From assembly GCF_965363235.1 (NCBI RefSeq), contig NC_134847.1, forward strand, positions 63,916,144 to 63,980,143: DNA of 64,000 nucleotides. The letters run 5' to 3'. A program made the position numbers and the translations under genes. Below are positions 561 to 64,000 of the stretch, piece after piece. Under the pieces are notes generated by a model. The model was not told where the DNA came from. It saw nothing but the letters and a program-made list of their open reading frames with translations, and did not search any database. Position 1 is the stretch's first letter; the number at the start of each line of letters is the position of its first letter. This stretch comes from Mytilus galloprovincialis. Lineage: Eukaryota.

Positions 561-1026
561 CACTATCTGTTTATAAACAAAAATAAAATTAATAGAAATT
601 GTTATATTATCTAATATTGGTTTAAATGTTTAATATTTCATTCCTTTGTGACAATCAAACTACTTTCAGCACCATTCACATACAGGATAGATCCACCATC
701 TTTGTATTGTTTTCTACAACGAAAGTCGTATGTGATTGTTTATAAATATACAAATAAATAGTTATCAAAGGTACCAGGATTATAAAATGCGTTATGTTTA
801 AAAAGAAACTACAACAGAACTGATTTGCCAATATCCTAGGATACGAACTGTTATCAAATTTTGTTTTATCTATAAACTTATAACTGTAATTGTAATTTCT
901 GTAATCTATAAATGGAACTTGAAGAAGTATAACAAATATTCTGAACTTCGAGGTAAATAAATATTCTGAACTCCGAGGTAAATAAATAAATGTGAGGTCC
1001 ATAAAAACTGACAAAACTGTGATGAT

Positions 1027-1460
1027 TCTTTGCTATATAGATATAGGAAGATGTGGTGTGAGTGCCAATGAGACAACTCTCCATCCAAATAACAATTTAT
1101 AAAAGTAAACCATTGTAGATCAAGGTACGGCCTTCTACACGGAGCCTTGGCTCACACCTAACAATAAGCTATAAAGGGCCCAAAAATTACTAGTGTAAAA
1201 CCATTCAAACGAGAAATCCAACGGTCTTATCTATATAAAAAACGAGAAACGAGAAACACGTATAAATTACATAAACAAACGACAACGTCTGTACATCAGA
1301 TTCCTGACTTAGGACAGATGCAAATATTTGCAGCGGGATCAAACGGTTTAATGGTACCAAACCTTCTCCCCCTTTTTCTGAAACAATAGTATAACATCAC
1401 AACATAGAAAAACACACGATAAAATAACAATTGGAAGGCTTAACTCAATCAGAAAACGTA
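1027..1460 (+). mobile_element. SINE-like interspersed repeat family A, full-length copy (about 430 bp)
   Basis: It begins ATATAGGAAGATGTGGTGTGAGTGCCAATGAGACAACTCTCCATCCAAAT...GGTACGGCCTTCTACACGGAGCC...CGAGAAACGAGAAACACG. It is about 85% identical to the copy at 48657..49070. Confidence 0.7.
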
Positions 1461-2377
1461 AATTAACATTATTTGGTACTGTTTAACATTGATTTGACGT
1501 GTATTTTGTTGTTGTCTATACTACCGATAATGTAAAGTTAAATATTTTTTTCGTATAAGAAAAAAACTGTTTTGCCACTGAAACTTATATTTTGGTGTTT
1601 AAAATTGTCCAGCGTGTGTGTCGTATCTAAAACATTAAAATAGTATGTCGATGAACGACTTCAAGCTACTTAGTTTTCTTTTGAATTGTTTTATATCAGT
1701 GATTTCGGGGTCTTTGATAGCTGACTATGTTGTATGGGCTTTACTCATTGTTGAAGGCCATACGATGACTTATAATTTTTAATTTCTGTGTCATTTTTGG
1801 TCTCTTGAAAGAGCTGTGATATTGGCAATTATACCACATCATCTTCTTTATATATTTTTTTTCACGTGATATATTCAACTATTAATACTCATTCTCAGTT
1901 CCTTAACACATTTCCCATCAATTAAAAAAAGATGTCATTGGTTGTAATTACATAATGTTATGAATTTGATTTGTTGTTTAGTGTTTTTCTCAGCTCTTTA
2001 CAATTATGATAATTACAAATAGAAAATTGCTTTCTTTGACTGAATTTAAAACTGGTCATATATTTTACAAAACGGCTGTTTAAATACAGTCAAAGCCTAG
2101 TCATCAATGTAAGTAGTATAAAGTCAGAAAACTCTAAGGATACTTTCAATACTATGCATCATGTTAACTATTCTAGTGAGACTTTAAAATATATGTGTTT
2201 ACTGTAAAATTATTTTGATAGGTTGAATGCTAAGGTGAAAAGATATAATTTAATGAAAATCCCTTGAGATATTGCTCATTTATTAACGTATGCTTTATCT
2301 GAAACATCTTATGAACGACATTTTTATGAGCAAATGGTTTAAAGTATAGAATCATTTGAGAAATCCATTCCTTCGAT

Positions 2378-2563: not shown

Positions 2564-2814
2564 CTACAAATATATGAAATGAATTTGCTGGAAATTAACT
2601 AATTATAATTGATACATGAAGAACCTGTGAAATGTGACTTAAAAGCTATCATTATTTATCTTATTTTATTCTAGGGTTATTCGTGTTCCTATTGTAATTC
2701 TGACTGTTAAATCTAACCTTCATTTTAGCATGCGTCTCATGTTTATGGATTTTTCATATTTCATTAAAGCAGGAAATTGAATGAGTTTTAAAAGTAAAAT
2801 TGGATTAGATTTTG

Positions 2815-2842
2815 GTAAAATCAAATATATATATATATATAT
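2815..2842. repeat. (TA)n microsatellite
   Basis: ATATATATATATATATATAT lies in the intron just 5' of SLC22 exon 8. Confidence 0.7.
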
Positions 2843-2930
2843 AAACATCTTGTCAAAATTTCTTTCCTCGTTTCGAAAAATGGTCACCACGAAAAAAGAT
2901 TGTAAAAAATCTCAAAAAACACATATTTAC

Positions 2931-3112
2931 CAAATCACCCACATATGCAGACACCATTGACCCAGCATACCCAGATGAGCTGCAAATTCCAATCGCAAAT
3001 GATCTGAGGTTAGTTGGGAAATTTTCCGCTACCATAAGATAAATATTAAAGTATGCCACCGTTATTGTGAGCTTTCCTATCATAGCTAAGGTTATCGTCA
3101 ACCAGTGAAGGG
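2931..3112 (-). CDS. SLC22-like coding exon 8 (TM9-TM11)
   Basis: The acceptor is ttttcatttgtctactacag|CC. It encodes (S)LHWLTITLAMIGKLTITVAYFNIYLMVAENFPTNLRSFAIGICSSSGYAGSMVSAYVGDL, where the SLC22 consensus is DLHWL...ELYPTVIR...G..S..R.GS..SP. The donor is GATTTG|GTAAAT. An alternative acceptor 60 nt upstream (gcaag|GT) was rejected because the protein alignment is poorer. Confidence 0.8.
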
Positions 3113-4412
3113 CTGTAGTAGACAAATGAAAATACGATAAAAACCATGTTATCATACCTTGCATACAAAGTTTTAGTCCGACGTGGTTTAAATGAATTTA
3201 AATACAACATAGATGCAAAGAAAGAAGTATAGACTTCCAAGTGCATTTAGGTATTACTAGCTATGTTCATTTTAACCCCGAAATGTTGATTGAATGAACC
3301 GTGTCATTGTTACTCCTTCTACATGGTTTGTCGTATCTACATGAAACTATATGCTATATGCAAATAAATTCGTGGATTAACATTCGAGTTCCATAATGAA
3401 TAGATATAAGTCATATTTTACAAAAGCCGAATTGATTATGAATTTAGCTTGTAAAATTCAGTTTAAAAATTATCAGTCTGAATAGTTATGTTTTTATCAT
3501 GATAGTTTATTTAATTGATTTGGATCAATGCAAAACCAGGTATTAATTCCAATGGGGCGATAGCAAAGAAATTGCGTATATATCTATGATCATATCACCT
3601 GATATCATTGATAACTATCAGAGAAATATATGATGAATTTAAAGAGCTAATGGTGGGAATGGAAAACGACGAAAAAGTATGTTATCTTAATGTGAAACTA
3701 CAAGCAATTTCAAGTATCTTCCAATTGGTGATATTAGTGCGAACCTAACTAAATTTTTCTACATTTTCATCTGCTATTGTTCAATCTATTTAAACTTTTT
3801 TTCAGTTCTGTTGTTTTATTGAGTGAATACAATAGCTATTGTTGTGTTTGTAGTTTATTCACCGGTACCTTTAATTTCTTTTAGCAAATAAAAGTTTGAA
3901 TAGATTGAAACTGTGGAAATGTTTCTTTTTTTTTTCATGCAGCTTGTGCATTTTAAAACGTTCGTTAAAAAAAGACAGACAGCAAATATGAAAAAAAGTC
4001 ATTGACTCCAAAAATCAAACAAACCACCAACGAATTATGTTATGATACAGAGTCTGGAAGCAAGTATATGTTGGGTCGCTATCAAGTGTACCTGATTATA
4101 AAAATGATAATCGTTTGCGTATATAAAGTTCCAAAAAGTTCACCTCCACTTATTGACAGTGAAAACTATACCATTTGTTTCACATCTATTAGACAAACGG
4201 AAAAGCGAAATGAATTGTACATAATATAATGCATTTGCAATCATCGATGGAAAATGTTCACATTGGTTTAACTCCTTTAAAAATACGTACGTTATCGGCA
4301 TGTCAAGAAAGCTCATATATACTAAAGTTATGTACTTAAGGGGCTTTTTCAGAAGTTTTATTATACTTTGATTGCAATTAAAGCTTTTGAAAGTGTTCTT
4401 AATTCTACTTAC

Positions 4413-9800: not shown

Positions 9801-10184
9801 TTCTTAATAGTATTGTTTGTAAATAAGCAGTTTTAAGATCATTACTTAAATTCAAATTGTTTTTGATAACATCTTACAAATTTCTCAATTGGTTTTGGAA
9901 GCAAAACTAATCAAATAAAGGTTTACAAACAATATCGTAATCAAAGAGCTAAGTATCAAAATGATTGTTCACATACATAACATTTAGCAATTTTTTTAAT
10001 GAACGCACCGAAATAATATATATCCGATATTCTCGCAACACACGCATGGATGACTTTCTTTATTGATAACAATGAAACTAACTTGTGACAAAGATGAATC
10101 ATACTGATCTCGTTCAGATAGATTCGACAAAATCTGATCTGCATTTTTTAATCTCCTTTTTAATACAAATTAGACCTTGGTTTT

Positions 10185-10335
10185 CCTGTTTGAATGGTTT
10201 AACACTAGTAATGTTTTTGTTCCTATATAGCGTGGTGTTCGCTGTGTGCCAAGGCTCCGTGTTTAAGGCCATACTTTGATCTATAATGGTTTACTTTAAA
10301 CAATTATTACTTTGATGGAAAGTTGTCTCATTCGA
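10185..10335 (-). mobile_element. Family A repeat, diverged 5' fragment (reverse orientation)
   Basis: Sequence: GCCAAGGCTCCGTGTTTAAGGCCATACTTTGATCTATAATGGTTTAC...GGAAAGTTGTCTCATTCGAACTCATGCACCATCTTCTTATAT. Confidence 0.5.
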
Positions 10336-12333
10336 ACTCATGCACCATCTTCTTATATCTATAAATCTTTTTTAAAAAATCCCCTTATAAATAACTACTT
10401 TCCAGTCCTCAAACTGAACGATCTACATTTATAAATATAGAAAAGATATATACACATTTCTAACGTCAAAAGACATTTACATCTTATTTATTTGTGTTCT
10501 TAACATTTTTTTTTAGTACTCATTGAAGAAATGACTTTATAACAAGCTATACGGATTGTTATTTTGCACCAAGAAATGTTCGCGTATTTATACGATCGGT
10601 TACTAGTCAAAAACGAAAGGCAATCTCTGTGACAACAATACATCGGAATGCCCTCACGGTCATCGCGATGTAAAATAGCGTCCACGCGGCGAGCTGATTA
10701 TGTTCATAGAGATTTCGATTTACCAACAGGAAAAGTCTTTGATATATAAAAAAAAAAAAAAAAAAGAACTGTTTTCCTTCTCAATATTTTGCTCTATGTT
10801 AATAATAAATACATTTTCTGTTTGACAAGATTTTTGATTTTCATTGTATCTGAAGTTGTCCAATTTATAGTCTGAGGCTACTCAGTTGGTATCTTCAAAG
10901 TTCGGGACATCAGCATTTGTGCATCTTAATTTGTTTGGATTATTTATTTTACCATTTGAATATTCATTGTAATTTGGAGCTGTATTTGATTGGATTGTTT
11001 GATAGAATTTTTCTTTTAAGTAATGATATTTTTTTGTCTATTTCGATATTACCAAGGTGGATAGGCTATAGCAGTGTGACCAGTATATTAGAATCTAATA
11101 GGTCGGTAGACTATTTGCAACCACATTTAAATTCCACCATTGCATCATCACTTCAAATAGAATTAGTCGGTTAAACCAATGTGTTTGAAAACAATAGACT
11201 GATCAGGTTGTTAACACTTTCAACTATTAATAGGGTCAAGCAACATTTTCGAAATGATAAGTTTATATAAGCGTTAATTTTGCCACAGTTACGAAATTTT
11301 AGTGATATTGACCCTAAAACATTAAACAAGTCATGATCTAAGTTTGTGAATTATGTTTGCAGTTTTCTTGACATGCATTGTGACGTGTCATCGTATTCAT
11401 TTTATATTAGAAAACTATAGCAGTTATATTATAAAAAGTATCGCATTCATAAATTTTTGATATAACAAAATCATCGCTATGATATAAGACCAATATCGCA
11501 TTGATATAATAAAATATAGCAGTATCTTTGACTTATAGGTGATTTTGGCTTAGCAAACAATTGAATTGCTACATGATATTTATAGAATGTGTACACCTAC
11601 AAATGATAAATCGTGCATTTATGTTTCATTTAATCAACAGTTCAATTTTCTCGTTTAAATACACCTTGCTTGTTATTACATAAATAATTCATGGAAATTA
11701 TACACCAGACGTATGTCGTGTTAAATGTCACCCTGTTTTAAGAAAAGAGTCTTTACTTTATGCCGAGAAATCTGCCTTTCTTCGTACAAATGCTAACATT
11801 CGTCTGAAATTTCCCACAATGCAACTCGTTGATATAAGACAATATCGCTCGTTGATACAAGAAAAGTTTTTATCGAATCGCTTCTTCCATAGACTGGGTC
11901 TAGTGAAGAGCCATTTCATTTGAAATCATACGGGCAAAATCTTATAAAATGAGTTTTAATTTCAAGGGCGCATCGACCTGTGAAGTCAAGTGCCCAGTTT
12001 TTTAACTAAATTTCACGATTTTGAATATGACACTCTTGTATTTACATCTACATTTTACAAGTCGACCTTTATAACTATATATTCTCATGTGCGCGGGTGA
12101 TAAAAAAATGAGGTTTGTCATCAGATAGCCCTACGACGCATGTATCTATATAGTGCAAATCATAATATTAGCAGCGCTTAAGTTCTGAAGGTTTTGTGAT
12201 GTTGATGATTTGTTTAGTGTTAGACCTTTGCTTTCTTTTTGTCTGTGTTGTCTTTTGTTGCCATGTTATTTGTTATTCTTTTCAATTTTTGTGTACTCTA
12301 TACGACTGCAGATCGACTAGTGTGCATACGTAC

Positions 12334-12916: not shown

Positions 12917-13789
12917 TCACTTGTGTTGGTGTTGATGGGTTAAGTATATATATATAACTTTGTCATTGTCAGTGAGATTAGCAAATGAATTACTTTCTCT
13001 GTTAATGCAATTAAAATATGTTAATCTAATATTTGAATTATGAGAACAATTTATTAAGAAATGTTTCTCATCATCTAGTACTTTGCATTTTTTGCAAAGT
13101 CTTTCTTCGCGAGGAATTTTAAAATGCCTTCCTTTTTCAATTAGTAATGAATGGTCACTGATTCTAAGTTTTGTAATTAATTTTCTAAATTCAAAGTTTG
13201 GGTTAGAGAGGTAAGGTTTGATCAATAGATTTGGCTCAAGTCCTTTATAAAAATTTAATTTACTTTTATCGTCAATAGATTTCAACTTATCCATCAACAG
13301 GTTGTTGTAATATGAGTTTATTTGGGGTTTAATATAGCTTTTAATATTTTTTAATTGTTTTAAATTATTACAGGTTTTTGGTCTATCTATATCAATGTTA
13401 GATTCAGAAAGAATATCTTTTGCAAAAGTGAACCATGAATAGGAGCCACTAGAATCCAAAGTTTTAGTTAATTGAAAAGATTTATGTAATAAGGGATTCA
13501 AATTTGAGGTAAAAAGCCTTGCTAAATACATAATAGTTTGGGTTTTTATATGACATTCAATAGGCAGTCTTCCCAATTCGTTCCTTGTACCAAAATTTGA
13601 GGCACTCTTGTTAGTGCCAAGGGTAAACTTGCAATAACCAAGATAAAAGTTTTCTATTGGAGTCTTGTCAATAAAATTAAATGGGTCCACAGTTTTTCCA
13701 GAAACCAAAGCTCTTTTTTTAGCTTTGAAATATGTTATATATGAGTCCAAATATGTTATCTCAGAATTATAAGTTAATATAGGTCTCAC
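12917..13789 (-). mobile_element. 5'-truncated non-LTR retrotransposon (LINE) fragment: ORF2 C-terminal region
   Basis: A 290-aa ORF ends ...ISDHSLLIEKGRHFKIPREERLCKKCKVLDDEKHFLINCSHNSNIR. This is the C-x2-C...H-x4-C zinc-knuckle tail typical of the CR1/L2/Jockey-type ORF2 C-terminus. No intact RT domain lies upstream. It sits in the intron between SLC22 exons 2 and 3. Confidence 0.7.
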
Positions 13790-23770: not shown

Positions 23771-24092
23771 TGTTTTCTCTATGCACATTTTCTTGGTTTA
23801 GAGATTGTTTGAAGTCATCAACTACAATACTAAAATAACAGAATTTTAAGACTTTCAAACCAATAATTGGTATTTCTTATAAACTGTTATTTTTTTTTTA
23901 TCTAACTTTTAAAAAAAACGTCATGATATTTGTGGAAATAAAACCTTCTCTTTATATTGCCTATATTATTATTCACTTTTCAGATTGGTTGACTGATCCA
24001 GTCAAACATATCAAAGGTGGTTAGAAAACAACCAGTTATGTAGGAGTTTTTGGATCTAGATTCATAACTGTTAACTACAAGTCTCTTTTATA

Positions 24093-27000
24093 CCCCAGTC
24101 CCACTAGACCACGATCGCACTACGATCTGTGAAAAAAATGCAAATTTTGATGATCGTGGTACGATCGTGTAGGTCGCAGTAAGGTCGTACCACGGTCGTG
24201 GCGAGGTCTTCAAGATCGTGCAGAGCGTGGCCAATTTTGAACATGTTCAAAACAATCGTGGTGCGGTCGCGGCGAAATTAGGTCGTAGTAGAAGCGTAGT
24301 GAGAGCGCACTAAGATCGTAGTAAGATCGCAAAGGTCGCTGTACAATCGTAGCGAGAGCGTAGCGAAAGCGTGATTCTATTCGGAGAGATTGCGCAACGA
24401 TCTCACAGCGACGTTATCACGACCTTACTACGACCATCACGTTCTCACCGCGACCCAACTACGCTTCCACTACGACATTACCACGCTGTTCACGACCATA
24501 GTACGATTCTAGCACGCCCTTGCCGTCCTCATCACGCTCTTCTCGCGACCTTACTACGTCTAGAGACATATAATAATAATGTATTATATGTCTCTGCTAC
24601 GTCCACACGACGACCATCATTTTTATTGTCATTTTCACATAAAATATATAAAAAAAAACTGCCTAGATTTTGTTTGTCTGAATGTATTTATCCATTTGCT
24701 CTAACGGCTCAACCATGCTTCTCGTTTTTATATAGATTAGACCGTTGGTTTTTCCCGTTTAAATGGTTTAACATTTTTTTTTATGGGCCCTTTATAGCGT
24801 GCTGTTCGGTGTGAGCCAAGGCTCCGTATTGAAGGCCGTACCTTGGCCTAAAATGGTTTATTTTTATAGATTTTTACGTTGATGGAGAGTTGTCTCATTG
24901 GCACTCATACCACATCGTCCTATATATGTTACAGTGAATTTGAATAATCAGTGATTATGTAGAATCACTGGCTACTTTAGGGATTATATATAATCACTAA
25001 AATTTTCAGGGATTATGTATAATCACTAGAAAAAACGTCAGTGATTATACATAATAACTGAAATGAAGAAATAGTTTTATTTATAAAGAAAATGAATAAA
25101 AGTCAAATAATTTATTCTATAAAATCATAATGAAACATCAATATAAACATAAATTGTAAAATGTTAAACACAATATATTAAAATAATAATTCGTCCTCAG
25201 TCAATATCATTCTTTCAGGTTAATATATGTTTGTACCAACCTCATACAAAGGCTATAATTGTATAATATTAGACACAATACATTGAAATGTTAAGCATAA
25301 GGTTAAACAGTCATTTATTTTTTACAAATTAAATTTGGATGGCATTGACCATTGCATATTTGCCCTGATTTTTAATAGGCATGTTTATTTGCTTCACATC
25401 TATTTTACCACAATATCCAAATTTTAAAAAAATAGTTTCCTTCACAAATCAGATTTACGACACGCCTAAGAGAAATAAAGTTTTCAGTAAAAACATCTGA
25501 AGGTACCCCCCCAAAAAAAAATAAAAATAAAAAATAAATAAAAATTAAAGGGTTTCAGTAACCTCGAACAGGTTCGAGCAATATACCATGTTTTGGGGTT
25601 TCACTTTCTTTTTTTTTTACCCTGTGGAATTGCTATGAGAATATTACACTAAATGTCAGCATCCTCTACAATTTTGTTCTATTTGTCAATCCTTAGTTCT
25701 GCCTGTTTTCTATACACTTAGATGCGTAAGTTCTCTCAGTTTGAATTTCTTGTTCATTTGAACAAAAAAACACAACACAAAACATTTGTTCCATAATCAT
25801 CTTCATCATTTGTTTTACCACAAATAACATGCTGTGTGGATTTACAAATAGAACATGAATATCGATTTGACGTTGGATTTTGATAAACAAACAATACATG
25901 TAAAGTTATCGCTATAAAGGAAATGTTGATATTATTATTTTGAAGCCTTCAACTTTATCTCAAAACCCCGTGTTGTTTAAATCTTTAAGATCACTCTGTG
26001 TTAAAAAGGAGAATAATCTCATCTTGAAAGGAATATGAAAGGAAAAAAGGATAATTTGTCTATATTTAAAAAAAAATAGCAAACAAAGTATCCTTAAATT
26101 TTTGATAATCCCTGAAATATTAGGGAATTTGTAGAATAATCATTAAAATGTTCAGTGATTTTGTAAAATCACTGGCCATTTTCAGGGATTATATATAATT
26201 ACTAATGATTTCAGTGATTCTACATATTCCCTGAAAAATCAGGGATTCTACATAATCCCTGACTATACAAATTCACTGTAACATATATATTGACACATCT
26301 GTGTCATCTCTGCTATCGTTGACTAAACTATCGTCATTTGAGCTTTATGGACCAGCAATATGTTGTAAATTAGGTTTGATTGGTCGTTCCGACATCTCTT
26401 GATGACAAGTATTATACTACTTATGTGTATAGTATCAGTTTAATTGAAGTCTGGAGCATGTCAGTTAACTGATAGTAGTCTGTTGTTATTTATGTATTAT
26501 TGTCATTTTGTTTATTTTCTTTAGTCACATCTTCTGACATCAGACTCGGACTTCTCTTGAACTGAAGTTTAATGTGCGTATTGTTATGCGTTCACTTTTC
26601 TTTTCTTCATTGACTAGAGGTATAGGGGAGGGTTGATATCCCACAAACATGTTTAACCCCACTATTTTTGCGCCTGTCCCAAGTCAGGAGCCTCCGGCCT
26701 TTGTTAGTCTTGTACTATTTTTAATTTTAGTTTCTTGTGTACTATTTGGAGTTTAGTATGGCGTTCATACTTTGCTCCCTCTGCCTCTACATCAACCCCT
26801 ACCAACACGCCCACGTGTTCTAGTAGATTTTGGTAGCATGACTGTATTGTATCCGAGAAATCTCCGTTTTAATCAGAAATAGAAGGAATGGAACTATATT
26901 GATATGAAACACGATGTTGACGGTATTGCTGAGAACGTAGTAAGATCGCGGTATGAACGTAGTATAATCGTGGTAAGAACGTGCTATAATCGCAGTAAGA

Positions 27001-27275
27001 TCGTGTTGCAATCGGATAACTCGTGGTATGGTCGTAGTGAGAACGTGAAGGGCGTAGAAAGATCTTGATAAGCGTAGTGAGGTCGCAGAATAAGCCCGAT
27101 GAGAACGTGGTTTAATCGTAGCGGGATCGTTGTAGAAGCGTAATTAGGACGTAGTAGCATCGTGAAACCAACGAAAATTATCATTTTATGCCGCTCATAC
27201 CGCGACCTCACCACGATCTAAATTTATTTTAGATCGCGGTGAGCGTGGTGCGATCGTGGTCTAGTGGGACTGGGG
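24093..27275. mobile_element. 3.2-kb foldback-like palindromic element with terminal inverted repeats CCCCAGTCCCACTAGACCACGATCGCAC
   Basis: The left terminus at 24093 is CCCCAGTCCCACTAGACCACGATCGCAC. The right terminus at 27250..27275 is GTGCGATCGTGGTCTAGTGGGACTGGGG, its exact reverse complement. The outer arms (24100..24560 and 26920..27250) are degenerate GATCGT(A/G)G / CGTAG-type subrepeats that are reverse complements of each other. Inner arm segments 24930..25040 and 26100..26285 (CAGTGATTATGTAGAATCACTG / CAGGGATTCTACATAATCCCTG) are also inverted. There is no long ORF. Confidence 0.65.
24770..24925 (-). mobile_element. Family A repeat, 5' 150-bp fragment (reverse orientation) inside the left arm of the foldback element
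   Basis: It is the reverse complement of family A positions 1..150: ...GGCTCCGTATTGAAGGCCGTACCTTGGCC...GGAGAGTTGTCTCATTGGCACTCATACCACATCGTCCTATAT. Confidence 0.65.
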
Positions 27276-27285
27276 CTTTAAGGGG

Positions 27286-48656: not shown

Positions 48657-49070
48657 GTACAAGATATAGGAAGATGTGGTATGAGTGACAATGAGACAAC
48701 TCTCCATCCAAGTCACAATTTATAAAATTAAACCATTATAGATCAAGGTACGGTCTTTAACACGGAGCCTAAGCTCACACCGAACAGCAAGTTAAACGGG
48801 AAAACCAACGGTCTAATCTATATAAAAAAAAAGAGAGAAACGAGTAACACTTATGAACCACATAAACAAATGACAACCACTGAGCATCAAATTACTGACT
48901 TAGGACAGGTGCAAATAATTGCAGCGGTATTAAACGTTAAATGGTACCAAACCTTCTACCTTTTCTAGAACAGTAGTATAACATCACAACATAGAAAGAC
49001 ACACTATAAAATATCAATTGGAACGACTTAACTCATTCAAAAAATTATATTGAATGTATAATGTAACAGC
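48657..49070 (+). mobile_element. SINE-like repeat family A, full-length copy
   Basis: Collinear with 1027..1460, with the same 5' terminus and internal blocks. Confidence 0.7.
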
Positions 49071-49960: not shown

Positions 49961-52900
49961 CAGGGCCGTAAGTACCATTGAGGCAAATGAGGCAAATGCA
50001 TGCCTCATGCCGGAAATTAAAAAAAAAATGAAAAAAAAAGATTGTCTTTTATCAAATTGTTTTCACAGAAAGTGTCTTGCAAGAGGCAAGCTCTATTCAC
50101 TCCCTGATGTCGCCCCTGCATTTTTTCCGTGATCCATTTTCTATTTTACTTTTGGTTTTCGGAGTTGATGGTCTATTGTTTGTACTTCTGTGTCTCGGGT
50201 TTGTATTTGTTCTTTTATTGTCCTACTTTATGACTATAGTCTGAGTGTTGATTTTCATTTGTAAACGTGTGCAATGTTAATGTTGCATGTCTGATGTCCA
50301 GATATAGTGTGGGAAAATATTTTAAGAATATGCTCTACGACAAAAATTGTTGACTTGTATCTGCATGGATAATTGAACTTGATATCAAAGAATACAAAAC
50401 TGTCTTATTTGTATATTAAACCACAGGTCTGGGCATATGATACAGATATTTTTTTTATTTTTTTGTTGTTGATTAAGATATTCAATTTTCTATATATTAA
50501 TAATACATATCTATCACTTTTGTGCGTGTCTCACCTAGTTTCGAGTGATTTAAACGACTTAGAGAACTGAAATACCCAATTTTTCTTAGTATGGATGGTA
50601 AAATTGGGTATTTTCTCGGAGTCGTTTAAATCACTCGAAACTAGCTATATATAGGTGAGACATGCACAGAAGTGATAGAAGATATGTGTTATAAATATAG
50701 AAAAATGACTATTTTAATCGACAACAAAAAATAAAAAAAAAGATATCTGTATCATGTACCCAAGCGCCTATAGCTCTCATGGTTTAAATTAAAGTAAGAC
50801 CACCAATTTCCTGGTATCAAATTATTTAAAAAAAAAACCAACAATGTATTGCTATATGACCTTTTACATTGAAGGGTTAAACTTGCATTAAGTCGTGTTC
50901 AGACAGAAAATAAAGGAATATGGAGTAACCTTGCACGGGACCTAATCGCACACAAAGTCAATGCATAGAAAAAATACTAATGATCAATGGTCAAAATTTG
51001 TATTCCTATTCTTCATCTTGATAGTTGTTGGAGGGTCTTCAATAATAAAAGATTAGAATCATTAATTCTGTAAAAGAAGGTCAAGATGGTCCCTAGTGTC
51101 GACTTGAGCAGTACTAGTACTTAAAGTATAATACTGCACTGTCGCAAATTTAAATCTTGTCATTAAAAAAAATCATCAAAGTCAGCACAATACAAGACAA
51201 GAGCAGACAGACTGAACCGGTATTAATGATTATGAGAAATACGATTTTTACTTTATCCTACATATTGGTCTTTTTATGTTGCCCCTAAAACCTAAAATGA
51301 ATCTATGTTTTTGCTTTGAGACCAGAATATTATCGAAAAAAATAGCTAAAGATGATTTGCGTTTCAATATAAGAAAGAGTCCGTGGAATGCTCAGAATGC
51401 ACGAATTTGCGATATTTTTTCACAGTTTCTGGGGGCCTTGAGCAACCCCCAGACCCTTCGCCAAAAATTTTCAGCTTGCTCCGCTCGGCGAATATATTTT
51501 GCCTCACTATTAACAGTATATGGGCGTTTTTCAATAAAACCGTATTTTCTTGTCCCAGCCACTTTAAAAAAAAATATGTTTGATCTTTGCAAGTAATTTT
51601 TTGTGCAGTCAGTACATTGAATAAGATTTAACATTTTTAAGCAAAGAAACAGTTTATTTTTAGAGGAATTAATAAGATATTGACTCCTGAATGGTCCAAA
51701 ACAACCAAAATGGCATGTCCCTAGACCGCCTGTTCAACATTCATACTCTAAAATATCGTAAAAAAATGAAGAAATAAATGTTATTTTTACTTTACATAAG
51801 TTCTTTAATAATTCAAAAGTATGTTCAGTGCCAACATATTTTAATAAACAGCTTTAAATATCGGATTTTTAATTTCAGAAGGTGTGTCCCTCACAAAATG
51901 TCCACTACGAAACGAAGTCTTTAAAATTTGCCAATAAACAGTTTTATAAAATCAATGTAATTTTTGTTTGCAAGAGATATAAACATTAGGGTCTTACAAA
52001 AGAAGTGATGCTTTTATAACGGCAATTAAATTGTTGGTAAGAAAAATTGAGCACATCAAATGGACCAGAGTGATACCGTATTTTTGTTAATGTCCACTAC
52101 GAAACGGGTCAAATCTCCTTCAGTATCTGGTTTTAAAATTATGAAAAAAATATCAGTGTACAGCTTAATAAATGCTTTGATGAATACAATCAGTCTTGTT
52201 ACTATTGCAATATAGGGATTGTGGGGGAAAAAAATAAAACATGCGAATATGTCCCCTACGAAACGGTCCCCTACGAAACAAGTATGGGAGAAAAACGTTT
52301 CGTAGTGGACACTACCACTACCATGCAGTCTTTTTTTAATCTTTTTTCAATTATATTCGTGCAAAACAAATAACAAGGGTTAGTTTCATGTAATTTTTAT
52401 TATGTTTTTATTAACATATAATAGGGTTGATGTCAACTACGAAACTTTTTGTCCACTACGAAACGGTTTTGTCCACTACGTAACGCATCAAAATGTCCAC
52501 TACGTAACATGAGTTGAACCTTCATATGTAAAGTACTGTCTAATCTTTAACGTTAAAAATGGTTTTCCAATTCAGAAAAAATGAGATTTTCTAGTATTTA
52601 AAGTAAACAAACTGGAATGTCTATAGGAAGCATTTAAAATTGCAAAAAATATGTGTGTTTAGAAGAATTTTCGTAGAGGACAAAAGTCCCCTACGAAACA
52701 GTACACAAATTATGAAAATAATATCATTTCAAAGAATATTTAAGATTGCACTTTTTGTTTACAAACAGGTCTATAATAGAAGTATTCAAAATAACTCTTG
52801 AAATTAAATTTTAGACATGTCAAGTTGATTTTCCATTTTTTTAGGTCTGAAAGTTACGCTTTTATTGAAAAACGCCCATATATGTGTCAAGACATGTAGA

Positions 52901-54654
52901 TTCCGCACCCATAATATTCCAAATATAGTCAGTTTAACTTATTATTCATAGTATTAATTAAGTGACTCGAGAAATTCACATAATAAAATAACTCAAGCAG
53001 TTGCTGTTCAACCCATATGCAAATGATATCAAGAACCATGGACAATATGATTGATATGACGGATAGTAATGCCTCGCATACTGCGACGAAAAGGCGTGAC
53101 AAAAAAAAACGACAAAAAAATAGAAAAAGGTTGCCGAAATATTGAAGCTATAGAGTATATAAAGAACTTATAGAATAATCATATTCAAATCATATGCAAA
53201 ATAAATAAAGAATGGAGAAAAATTGTTAAAACAGGGCCGTAACTAGCCCCTTTTAATACTGAGGCAAAATATGTTTGCCGAGCGTAGCGAGGCGAATTTT
53301 TTTTTGGCGAGGGGCTTGGGGCCGCTTTTAAAGGCCCCCAGAAGCTCTGAGAAAAATAACGCAAAATCGTGCATTCTGAGCGTTTCCCGGACTCTTTCTT
53401 ACATAGAAACGCAAATAATTTTTAGCTATTTTTTCGACAAATCATAATTCTGGTCTCAAAGCAAAAACATAGATTCATTGTTATTTAAGACTTTTAGGGA
53501 AATTCAAAACATTAAAAGAGCGATATGTAGGATAAAGCAAAAATCGTAATTCTTATGATCATTAATACCGGATCTGTCTGTCTGTTCTTGTCTTGTATTG
53601 TGCTAACTTGAGATTTTTTATGACTAGATTTAAATATAGTGACAGTCATTAGTGCAGTAATATACGTTAAATACTAGTACTGCTCAAGGCGACACTAGGG
53701 ACCATATTGACCTTGTTTTACGGTATTTATGATTCTTTCATAATGGAAGACCCTCCAGCAACTATCAAGATGAAGAACAGGAATAAAAACTTTGACCATT
53801 GATCATTTGTATTTTTTTCTATACATTGACATTGTGTGCGATTAGCTCCCGTGCACGTGTACTTCATATTCCTTTATTTTCTGTTAAAGGGTCTAAACAA
53901 GAATTAATGCAAATTTAACCCTTGAATGTAAAAGGTCATATGGCAATACATTGATGTTTTTTTCAACAAATGATTTGATACCGGGAAATTGGTGGTCTTA
54001 CTTTAATTTAAACCATGTCAGCTATCTAGTTTTATCCACAGGTGCTTGGGTATATGATACAGTTTTTGTTGTTGTTTTGTTTGGTTATGATATTCAATTT
54101 TCTATATTTATAATACATATCTATCACTTCTGTGCATATCTCACCTACAGAAAATACCTAATTTTGCAATCCATCCTGAGAAAAATTGGGTATGGTTTTA
54201 TATACAAGAAAATCAGTTTCGCAGAAACGACCACTTTTTTCTGTGTCCAGTAGCATCGTATATTCTTAAAATATTTTCTCGCATAATGCCTGGACATCGG
54301 TGGACATGCAACATTACACAGTGTGACACGTTTACAAATGAAAATCAACACTCAGACTAGTCATTAAGTAGGAGAATAAATGAACAAAGACAAACCCGGG
54401 ACACAGAAGTAAAAACAATAGACCATCAACTCTGAAAACCAAAAGTAAAATAGAAACATGGATTACGAAAAATATGCAGGGGCGACATCAGAGAGTGAAG
54501 AGAACTTGCTTCTTGCAAGACACTTTCAGTGAAAACAATTTGATGTGAAGACAATCATATGAAGAAAATCTTTTGTTTTTGTTTTAGTTTTTTTTTTTTG
54601 AAATTTAAAACATGAGGCATTTGCCTCATTTGCCTCAATGTAGTTACGGCCCTG
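49961..54654. mobile_element. 4.7-kb long-TIR palindromic non-autonomous element (termini CAGGGCCGTAAGTAC...GTAGTTACGGCCCTG) with a 5-bp TSD ACAAC
   Basis: The outer arms 49961..50385 and 54225..54654 are reverse complements. Nested inverted arms lie at 50760..51600 and 53230..54020. An internal hairpin module occupies 50400..50575 / 50585..50760 and is repeated directly at 54035..54180. The core 51600..53230 is unique. The element sits inside a family B SINE copy, with ACAAC duplicated at 49956..49960 and 54655..54659. Intact SINE copies carry a single ACAAC at the corresponding site. Confidence 0.75.
51890..52710. other. Cluster of at least 9 copies of a 14-nt motif GTCCACTACGAAAC (variants GTCCCCTACGAAAC, GTCAACTACGAAAC, GTCCACTACGTAAC) in both orientations
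   Basis: Occurrences are near 51899, 52092, 52252, 52268, 52297 (reverse complement CGTTTCGTAGTGGAC), 52430, 52449, 52471, 52496 and 52685. All lie in the unique core of the 4.7-kb long-TIR element. Confidence 0.6.
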
Positions 54655-59417: not shown

Positions 59418-59700
59418 CAATTACATATGGTATGATTGCCAATGAGACAATTCTCCACAAGAGATCAAATCGACACAGAAATTAACAACTACATGTCACT
59501 GTACGGGGATAAACCAGCAAAGTCAATACCGCATAATCAGCTATAAAAGGCCCCGAAATGACAATGTAAAACAATTCAAGCGAAAAAACTAATGGCCTTA
59601 TTTTTTATCAAAAAAATAAACAAAAAACTAATATGTAACACATAAACAAACGACAACCACTGAATTACAGGCTCCTTATATCATGTTCTCAAAACTAGAT
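59418..59700 (+). mobile_element. Family A repeat, diverged partial copy
   Basis: It begins GGTATGATTGCCAATGAGACAATTCTCCAC and continues ...CAGCTATAAAAGGCCCCGAAATGACAATGTAAAACAATTCAAGCGAAAAAACTAATGGCCTTAT...CATAAACAAACGACAACCACTGA. The block order matches family A. Confidence 0.55.
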
Positions 59701-62465: not shown

Positions 62466-62520
62466 ATACTTGGATGGAGAGTTGTCTCATTGGCACTCAT
62501 ACCACATCTTCCTATATCTA
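62466..62520 (-). mobile_element. Family A repeat, 55-bp 5'-terminal fragment (reverse orientation)
   Basis: GGAGAGTTGTCTCATTGGCACTCATACCACATCTTCCTATAT is the exact reverse complement of the family A 5' end. Confidence 0.6.
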
Positions 62521-62652
62521 TATCATGAATGTAAAGGCATAATGTACGAACCATACTAGACAGATACATGTACTAACATACCTAGAAAAGTAAATACACC
62601 AACCGTCCTCAACCCCTGACTTTTATTTAGAACTGTACCAGGCTTTGCTCCA

Positions 62653-62745: not shown

Positions 62746-63257
62746 GACATATATTGTAAAAGAGGGACGGAAGATACCAGAGGGACAGTCAAACTCATAA
62801 ATCAAAAAAAAAAACTGACAACGCCATGGCTAAAAAAGAAAAGGACAAACAGACAAATATAGTACACATGACACAACATAGAAAAATAAAAAATAAACAA
62901 GACGAACCACACCAAAAACTAGGGGTAATCTCAGGTGATCCGGAAGGGTAAGCAGATCCTGCTCCACATGTGGCACCCGTCGTGTTGCTTATGAGATAAC
63001 AAATCCCGTAAAGAACTTATTCGATATCATTTGTGAAACGGTTATTCTATAACGGTCAACCAACTCGTGATGGCGTCCGTAAAATTTACGAAGAGATGAT
63101 TTCAACTTCACCATTTGGAACTCTTGATTTAATAGCTTCCTTGTGAGCAACAACCCTTTATCAAGAAAAGCATAATAGGATGCAAGCACAGGAATATCGT
63201 ATCAATTGGGAGATATATACACCGTATGCAGACCATGTGCTACTGGAATGTTTCTAC

Positions 63258-64000
63258 TTAGAAATTGTTTACTGCCCTACATACATTGTAATTGTTTACT
63301 GTCATGTATACATAGTAATTGTTTACTGTCATGCATACATTGTAATTGTTTACTGTCATGCATACATTGTAATTGTTTACTGTCATGTATACATTGTAAT
63401 TGTTTACTGCCCTACATACATTGTAATTGTTTACTGTCATGCATACATTGTAATTGTTTACTGTCATGTATACATAATAATTGTTTACTGTCATGCATAC
63501 ATTGTAATTGTTTACTGTCATGCATACGTTGTAATTGTTTACTGTCATACATACCTTGTAATTGTTTACTGTCATGTATACATTGTTATTGTTTAATGTC
63601 ATGCATACATTGTAATTGTTTACTGTCATGTATACATTGTAATTGTTTACTGCCCTACATACATTGTAATTGTTTACTGTCATACATACCTTGTAATTGT
63701 TTACTGTCATGTATACATTGTTATTGTTTAATGTCATGCATACATTGTAATTGTTTACTGTCATACATTCATTGTAATTCTTTACTGTCAAGTATACATT
63801 GTTATTGTTTAATGTCATACATACATTGTAATTGTTTACTGTCATGTATACATTGTTATTGTTAAATGTCGTGCATACATTGTAATTGTTTACTGTCATG
63901 TATACATTGTAATTGTTTACTGTCATGTATAAATTGTAATTGTTTACTGTCATACATGCATTGTAACTGTTTACTGTCATGTATACCTTGTTATTGTTTA
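63258..64000. repeat. 27-bp minisatellite array (unit GTCATGCATACATTGTAATTGTTTACT), at least 27 units, continuing past the window end
   Basis: The period of 27 was verified from successive GTCATG positions (63301, 63328, 63355 and so on). A period that is a multiple of 3 explains the 138, 219 and 240-aa repetitive ORFs called in several frames. Confidence 0.85.

Follow-up and report, generated by a model that had tools for sequence, protein, structure and literature searches.

What lies behind a 3.2-kb inverted repeat in the genome of Mytilus galloprovincialis? The repeat was marked at positions 24093-27275 of a 64,000-nucleotide (nt) stretch of contig NC_134847.1, hereafter the window, and an initial annotation read it as a Foldback-type transposon with long arms built of subrepeats. 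We found that it is one copy, spanning 24091-27277, of a dispersed family whose members are flanked by T-W-A (W, A or T) and that other repeats are nested in it. From its target site and ends we infer that the family is probably a non-autonomous cut-and-paste (class II, terminal inverted repeat [TIR]) member of PIF/Harbinger, with a canonical length of ~1.2 kb, that would be mobilized in trans and whose arrays of 11-bp units would serve as sites for a trans-acting partner.

Copies with the same termini share sharp boundaries

The inverted termini are exact: CCCCAGTCCCACTAGACCACGATCGCAC at 24093-24120 is the reverse complement of 27248-27275, and the pair found no match in 100 shuffles. We scanned public metagenome contigs with a 20-nt terminus and recovered a single contig, L001 (ENA ORXM01037036, "marine metagenome"), which is 95% identical to window 26768-27278 over 512 nt. 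Because the arms are poor in stop codons, gene callers predict spurious open reading frames (ORFs) there, and we used such ORFs as protein queries. A 117-aa ORF from the L001 arm matched 15 database "proteins," and an ORF from the left arm of the window copy matched 3 more; 12 contigs were taken from these matches (L002-L013, all from ENA assembly ERZ6864376). The family thus sampled covers 13 contigs from two marine metagenome assemblies and, with the window included, 12 right-type and 5 left-type ends. Four further copies are complete (L002, 1227 bp; L003, 1450 bp; L007, 1134 bp; and the internally deleted L009, 483 bp), and several partial or doubled copies are also present on these contigs. 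At least 16 copies have the same termini and unrelated flanks, on contigs of incidental host DNA in the metagenomes.

We did not find a second copy within the window by BLAST, mismatch search, or an nhmmer profile of the family. Exact scans of bacterial and archaeal genomes and of viral contigs with the terminus gave no match, as expected for a eukaryotic repeat, and the terminus was absent from the examined supplementary files of the bivalve transposable element library paper.

Comparison of the copies placed the conserved ends of the element at 24091 (TA) and 27277 (CT). The dinucleotide TA precedes CC(C/G/A)CAG at 5/5 left-type ends, CT (AG on the other strand) follows CTGGGG at 11/12 right-type ends, and homology between copies breaks off sharply just beyond TA and CT. 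The right boundary at 27277 was confirmed by a copy on L001 that lies inside the arm of another copy. The 26-bp inverted termini of the initial annotation are real and exact, but they measure 28 nt, and at each side the element extends 2 nt beyond them. The left TIR (24091-24127, plus strand) consists of TA, CCCCAGTCCCACTAGACCACGATCGCAC (28 nt, matching the right end exactly), and a further 7 nt, five of which match; the right TIR (27241-27277, minus strand) ends with ...GTGCGATCGTGGTCTAGTGGGACTGGGG followed by CT. Terminal similarity goes on to 78 nt at 76%. True TIR identity is confined to ~35 nt, and the TIR of the canonical form is 28-35 bp long, TA/AG-CCCCAGTCCCACTAGRCCACGATCGCAC.

The family inserts at a T-W-A trinucleotide

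We then aligned the flanks of all 17 ends (5 left-type and 12 right-type), together with the five complete copies (window, L002, L003, L007, and L009). The three positions next to the element were T, W, and A at 16/17 ends each, and positions further out were variable. A full T-W-A adjoined 14/17 ends, compared with a background of ~0.08 from base composition (binomial P about 3e-13). The window copy lies between two TTA trinucleotides, at 24088-24090 and 27278-27280, which adjoin its conserved ends. L003 is likewise flanked by TTA and TTA, and the flanks of L002, L007, and L009 are each one mismatch off a perfect duplication. The target-site duplication, on which the initial annotation had not settled, could in this way be defined from the other copies.

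The nested copy on L001 showed on which side of the boundary the trinucleotide belongs. Outside ...CTGGGGCT, the sequence runs on as TAAGCGTAGAGAGGTCGC, which is the arm segment GA-TAA-GCGTAGTGAGGTCGC; this segment is intact in the window at 27066-27085, with the site GA-TAA-GCGTAG itself at 27066-27078. The L001 copy was thus placed at a pre-existing TAA in an arm, and so TAA belongs to the target rather than to the element. Family copies also lie side by side: L008 holds two (1725-2650 and 2784-3342), and on L001 (1802-1899) one copy is inserted in the arm of another, so that the TAA-containing arms are themselves targets of the family.

Longer duplications were not supported. Across 100 boundary offsets and lengths of 2-11 nt, none of the five complete copies had a perfect duplication of 6 nt or more, and the best match fraction for duplications of 8-9 nt was 0.36-0.45 over these copies. 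A 2-bp (TA) or a 4-bp (TTAA, piggyBac/Kolobok-like) duplication was rejected; fewer copies would fit, and the boundaries would have to be asymmetric or to shift.

The window copy is a ~1.2-kb element with nested insertions

In alignments with L002 and L007, three parts of the window copy (24091-24720, 26283/26290-26413, and 26768-27277) make up the canonical element, which is 1.13-1.26 kb long. The window copy reaches 3.2 kb because of a captured piece resembling a short interspersed nuclear element (SINE), a 1.35-kb TIR transposon, and a 354-bp insert; the size given in the initial annotation is therefore that of the element plus its insertions. L001, L002, L003, and L007 all lack both 24931-26282 and 26414-26767. 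The centre of the canonical form is non-repetitive over ~400 bp and falls into three segments in the window: 24616-24720 and 26283-26413, both of which align to L002, L003, and L007 (the latter is also 90% identical to L001 1157-1287), and 26768-26932, which lies within the 512 nt shared with L001 at 95% identity. A strict definition of a miniature inverted-repeat transposable element (MITE) asks for a non-coding, TIR-bounded repeat of high copy number under ~0.8 kb; at 1.13-1.26 kb the canonical form exceeds that length and is better named a non-autonomous element.

The SINE-like piece (24721-24930, plus strand) is a 5'-truncated copy of a dispersed repeat. Positions 24716-24950 belong to this repeat, which recurs at six or more other places in the window, at 1020-1248 (minus), 1670-1856 (plus), 10152-10358 (plus), 48657-48826 (minus), 59425-59622 (minus), and 62467-62535 (plus). 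The dispersed copies have a common 3' end, ...GGAGAGTTGTCTCATTGGCACTCATACCACATCTTCCTATATCTAT, and a tRNA-like head was not detected in them by ARAGORN or Rfam. We found no tRNA or Rfam match for the captured piece either, so that its identity as a SINE is putative, and a literature search for the sequence gave no match. The piece sits at the same position in 7/12 family copies (window, L001, L003, L004, L006, L010, and L011), whose mutual similarity is 88-94%. It is absent from the other five (L002, L005, L007, L008, and L012), most of which are more divergent. The identical position in seven copies indicates that the piece was captured once and that the composite kept transposing. The initial annotation had placed a SINE fragment in the left arm and had taken it as a sign of age. 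The repeat is indeed present, but it lies in the interior just beyond the arm and is shared within a subfamily; judged from this distribution, it gives no date for the window copy in particular.

The second insertion, an unrelated TIR transposon of ~1.35 kb (24931-26282), is absent from every other family copy. It accounts for the inner inverted pair (24921-25062 against 26289-26151, 142 nt at 80%) that the initial annotation had assigned to the element itself: the pair is the TIRs of this separate transposon, ~140 nt each and made of 29-bp palindromic subrepeats (TCAGGGATTATGTATAATCACT...). The nested transposon begins with TGTTACAGTG and ends with CACTGTAACA, and the filled site reads CCTATATA followed by TGTTACAGTG...CACTGTAACA and then TATATATTGAC. 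Compared with the empty site, CCTATATCTATTGAC, seen in L001 and L003, the filled site fits a 4-bp TATA duplication. A 46-aa ORF at 25754-25894 (minus strand) matches Pfam Znf_SCAND3 (E = 1.6e-8), which points to a decayed derivative of a coding transposon. Its TGTNR ends and 4-bp duplication would presumably fit a Ginger-type identity; hAT is also possible. Two weak microRNA-family matches on its hairpin subrepeats were taken as chance, and neither the element nor the window as a whole gave a hit above threshold for tRNA genes or Rfam-level RNA genes.

The third insertion (26414-26767, plus strand, boundaries approximate to ~10 nt) is a SINE-like sequence of ~354 nt with the head ...GCGCCTGTCCCAAGTCAGGAGCC, and all other copies have a gap there. 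Its head resembles the 5' region of the dispersed SINE-like family (compare the window copy at 960-1330, minus strand). In addition, the region 24554-24603 holds a 36-nt perfect-stem palindrome (24561-24596, TAGAGACATATAATA...TATTATATGTCTCTG; computed palindrome identity 91%) with 7-bp direct repeats, CTACGTC, on each side. This palindrome is private to the window copy and missing in L002, L003, and L007; it could be an extremely deleted tiny transposon or an excision remnant.

In agreement with the initial annotation, we found no coding capacity in the element by ORF and Pfam examination. The arm ORFs contain no Pfam domain and are artefacts of the stop-poor repeats, and the ORFs of at least 70 aa within 6 kb on each side look non-coding. 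We also observed that, in the non-repetitive centre, a conserved ATG at 26790-26850 (minus strand) is followed by MPPKSTRTRGRGGRG and then a stop in the window copy, L001, L002, L003, and L007. This short ORF might be a remnant of the first exon of a gene of the ancestral element.

The ends carry phased 11-bp units in both orientations

With the nested inserts removed, an iterated position weight matrix converged on the 11-mer GRTCGTRGTRA and counted 59 non-overlapping units, compared with a mean of 4.7 (maximum 12) in the shuffled controls. Tandem Repeats Finder (TRF) returned periods of 11, 22, and 33 in the arms, and the CGYRG cores are mostly spaced by 11, 22, or 33 nt and at times by 9, 20, or 31 nt. 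The units are degenerate, and their number varies between copies through indels of 11-22 nt in the arms. The CG core is nonetheless retained in 94-98% of the 59 units, and many differences between copies are changes of CG to TG or CA.

From the left end inward, two minus-oriented units lie inside the TIR and are followed by a 25-nt spacer, a left outer array of ~17 units, nearly all plus-oriented (24152-24366; spacing 11/22, or 9/20, nt), and a left inner array of ~15 minus-oriented units (24392-24615). At the other end, 18 plus-oriented units (26933-27157) are followed by two minus-oriented units (27197-27218) and by three plus-oriented units running into the TIR. The left outer and right arrays were delimited by the weight matrix, TRF, and motif spacings. 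The left inner array pairs both with the left outer array, as a hairpin, and with the right array; the two minus-oriented units on the right pair with the terminal units as a short hairpin, and 27192-27256 is self-complementary.

This layout explains the limited complementarity of the arms. Since each end carries units in both orientations, the arms are just 60-66% complementary. The left end is largely complementary to itself (24254-24508 at 62%), in the form of a long imperfect hairpin, and the sole long arm-to-arm pairing joins 24398-24559 to 27085-26935 at 66%. Short degenerate repeats, as claimed at first, do make up the arms, but as blocks of mixed orientation; complementarity past the termini exists (78 nt at 76% and the one 66% segment) but seems to fall short of one long inverted pair.

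We next predicted single-strand DNA folds. The 1264-nt canonical element folded at -241 kcal/mol, compared with -145 +/- 5 kcal/mol in shuffles (z about -19), with 168 left-to-right and 100 left-to-left pairs. The left arm alone was also strongly structured (z = -8.2), whereas the right arm alone had no significant structure (z = -1.6). In these predictions the foldback potential is real yet asymmetric, and it arises because the motif arrays run in both orientations.

A probable PIF/Harbinger derivative

The strong T-W-A flank argues for PIF/Harbinger and for a long "Tourist-like" derivative. PIF/Harbinger elements create a 3-bp TAA/TTA duplication and need a transposase together with a Myb-like ORF1 protein (PMC2836001), and bivalves are rich in them, with 58 curated consensus sequences (PMC10294476). 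Similar to the non-autonomous mPing and Harbinger3N_DR, the present element combines a 3-bp TAA/TTA duplication with short TIRs and, being non-coding, would be mobilized in trans. A further likeness is to Harbinger3_DR, whose Myb-like protein recognizes a subterminal 9-bp motif (PMC9710019).

The most likely account of the window copy is as follows. The element inserted at a TTA, which was duplicated; its mobilization in trans would depend on a DDE transposase and on a DNA-binding partner of Myb/SANT/MADF type, both encoded elsewhere. The 11-bp units would be candidate repeated binding sites of the partner or of the transposase and would bring both element ends together. The foldback geometry is incidental, arising from site arrays that run in both orientations. 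The captured SINE-like piece spread with a subfamily; the 1.35-kb TIR transposon and the 354-bp repeat are later insertions private to the window copy, which also holds the 36-nt palindrome.

Several observations weigh against this assignment. The 13 related contigs, which together cover 33-41 kb, yielded no autonomous or transposase-bearing copy and no DDE_Tnp_4 transposase or Myb/SANT/MADF gene, leaving the target site and TIR length as the basis of the superfamily call. The 3-bp duplication is perfect in just two of the five complete copies, and about one pair of flanks in two should match anyway when each is held to T-W-A. The outermost dinucleotides (TA and AG) are non-complementary, and in the 17 flanks, a small sample, no extended target preference of ~9 bp was seen apart from a weak excess of pyrimidines at -1 (13/17). 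Classical Tourist MITEs stay below 0.5 kb and have no long unit arrays, and PIF/Harbinger non-autonomous elements measure 0.1-0.5 kb, whereas the canonical form here is 1.2 kb, with ~60 phased units in both orientations and strong predicted foldback potential. The pairing of a 3-bp duplication with subterminal motifs in direct as well as inverted orientation is also the hallmark of En/Spm (CACTA) elements. As regards the putative binding role of the units, L009 shows that a copy which keeps both ends can persist with most of its arrays deleted. Lastly, the TIR core CCCCAGTCCCACTAG resembles the mPing end GGCCAGTCACAATGG, checked in the primers of PMC2836001, at only 10/15 positions and at an offset of 2 nt from the true terminus; we treat this weak resemblance as a lead, not as evidence.

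Alternative readings of the arrays and of the superfamily

The 11-bp arrays could instead be a neutral minisatellite that expanded by slippage in a master copy, with only the 28-35-bp TIR being recognized. The degeneracy of the units, the variable array length, and possible common inheritance of the arrays would fit such an origin, as would L009 (483 bp), which lost most arrays and keeps both ends with T-W-A-like flanks. However, slippage does not readily account for a CG core kept in nearly all units when CpG is the fastest-decaying dinucleotide, for units inside the TIR and at both ends, or for the 11-nt phasing on one face of the helix. There are also precedents for functional repeats in such positions, namely the subterminal motif of Harbinger3_DR (PMC9710019) and the THAP sites of Galileo (PMC3688188). 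The phasing, the units inside the TIR, and the preserved CG core favour a putative functional role over pure slippage, which we consider rather doubtful.

Turning to the superfamily, the main rival to PIF/Harbinger is another one with a 3-bp duplication, chiefly CACTA/CMC, whose subterminal motifs are bound by a TnpA-like protein, or else Zator or Academ. CACTA/CMC is the main rival because it combines a 3-bp duplication with subterminal motifs in both orientations: CACTA/En-Spm elements carry many ~12-bp motifs within a few hundred bp of their ends. Elements of the CMC, Academ, and Zator types also occur in bivalves (PMC10294476). The termini here, TACCCCAG... and AGCCCCAG..., are however not CACTA(C/G), and a CACTAG sits 11 nt inside the end. 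We know of no description of T-W-A as a target preference of CACTA elements. A near-invariant T-W-A flank is instead the signature of PIF/Harbinger (PMC2836001), and we judge this group of alternatives to be unlikely.

A genuine Foldback element (FB or Mutator-Foldback, such as Drosophila FB or Tm1 of root-knot nematodes) would have long TIRs made of subrepeats, a transposase like that of Mutator-like elements, and a 9-bp duplication. Like those elements, the family has internally repetitive ends of variable length (11-22-nt arm indels change the unit number), strong hairpin potential when single-stranded, and no ORF, in keeping with the mostly non-coding copies of Foldback families. Long internally repetitive ends are, however, known from several superfamilies and so are not diagnostic of one (PMC3688188). 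Tm1 and FB-like elements have composite TIRs and duplicate 8-10 bp, in most cases 9, at targets that share no consensus (PMC3169594). In the present family, no duplication of 7-11 bp was present in any of the five complete copies at any boundary offset, the flanks follow T-W-A instead, true TIR identity stops at ~35 nt, and each end holds arrays in both orientations, with arms that are just 60-66% complementary. The Foldback class given in the initial annotation thus reflects a resemblance in shape alone, and true membership is highly improbable.

The hAT and P superfamilies (the latter including Galileo) were rejected as well; they require duplications of 8 bp and 7-8 bp, respectively, which none of the five complete copies has. 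Galileo remains informative as a comparison. Repeated THAP-binding sites have been demonstrated in its long repetitive ends, and long TIRs occur in different superfamilies (PMC3688188), consistent with repetitive ends arising independently, as in other Foldback-like elements, and being able to carry multiple transposase-binding sites. It differs from the present family in its 7-bp duplications, 0.5-1.2-kb TIRs, and THAP-domain transposase.

Finally, despite its single occurrence in the window, there is next to no chance that the repeat is a non-mobile inverted duplication or palindrome that arose in place, given at least 16 same-terminus copies with unrelated flanks on 13 contigs from two assemblies, one of them inside another, and sharp conserved boundaries, so that the initial view of a mobile element stands.

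Other repeats in the window

The window has a GC content of ~31%, abounds in dispersed repeats, and resembles non-coding metazoan DNA. We observed a much longer inverted repeat of a different family at 50510-54193, with arms at ~50510-51545 and 52855-54193. These arms consist of collinear blocks of 72-135 nt that are 88-90% complementary, including one exact block of 33 nt, and they enclose a 1.3-kb centre in which TGTCCACTACGAAACG occurs 10 times or more, in either orientation; the foldback geometry of this repeat is truer than that of 24091-27277. A tandem minisatellite at 63180-63980 can be translated on both strands as long ORFs filled with repeats (...CHAYIVIVYCHVYIVIVY... and ...MTVNNYNVC...) and is not a gene. 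A 290-aa ORF at 12917-13789 (minus strand) has 47 relatives on short metagenome/Logan contigs, three of which carry the reverse-transcriptase domain PF00078; judging from these matches, it is probably the C-terminal part of ORF2 of a non-long-terminal-repeat retrotransposon.

Implications

Overall, our analyses describe an ordinary non-autonomous DNA transposon with nested repeats, from a family that may already be catalogued, and they bear on no long-standing open question. The 3.2 kb is better annotated as a single host element plus three or four repeats nested in it than as one foldback transposon, and a repeat library of this genome gains from the family a clean consensus with exact boundaries and T-W-A as the target site. 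The SINE-bearing subfamily illustrates that a DNA transposon can capture a retroposon fragment yet continue transposing.

The one feature that is mildly out of the ordinary for a probable PIF/Harbinger element is how large and regular its 11-bp arrays are; such dense, phased arrays would be a handy substrate for studying how accessory DNA-binding proteins recognize transposon ends. We tentatively raise the possibility that a marine-invertebrate lineage of PIF/Harbinger independently evolved Foldback-like ends, with ~60 helically phased 11-bp candidate sites for a Myb/MADF partner. If so, PIF/Harbinger would join Mutator/FB and P/Galileo as superfamilies with convergent foldback-like architecture, and the family would offer a natural test of whether multiplied sites for an accessory protein offset the cost of greater length.

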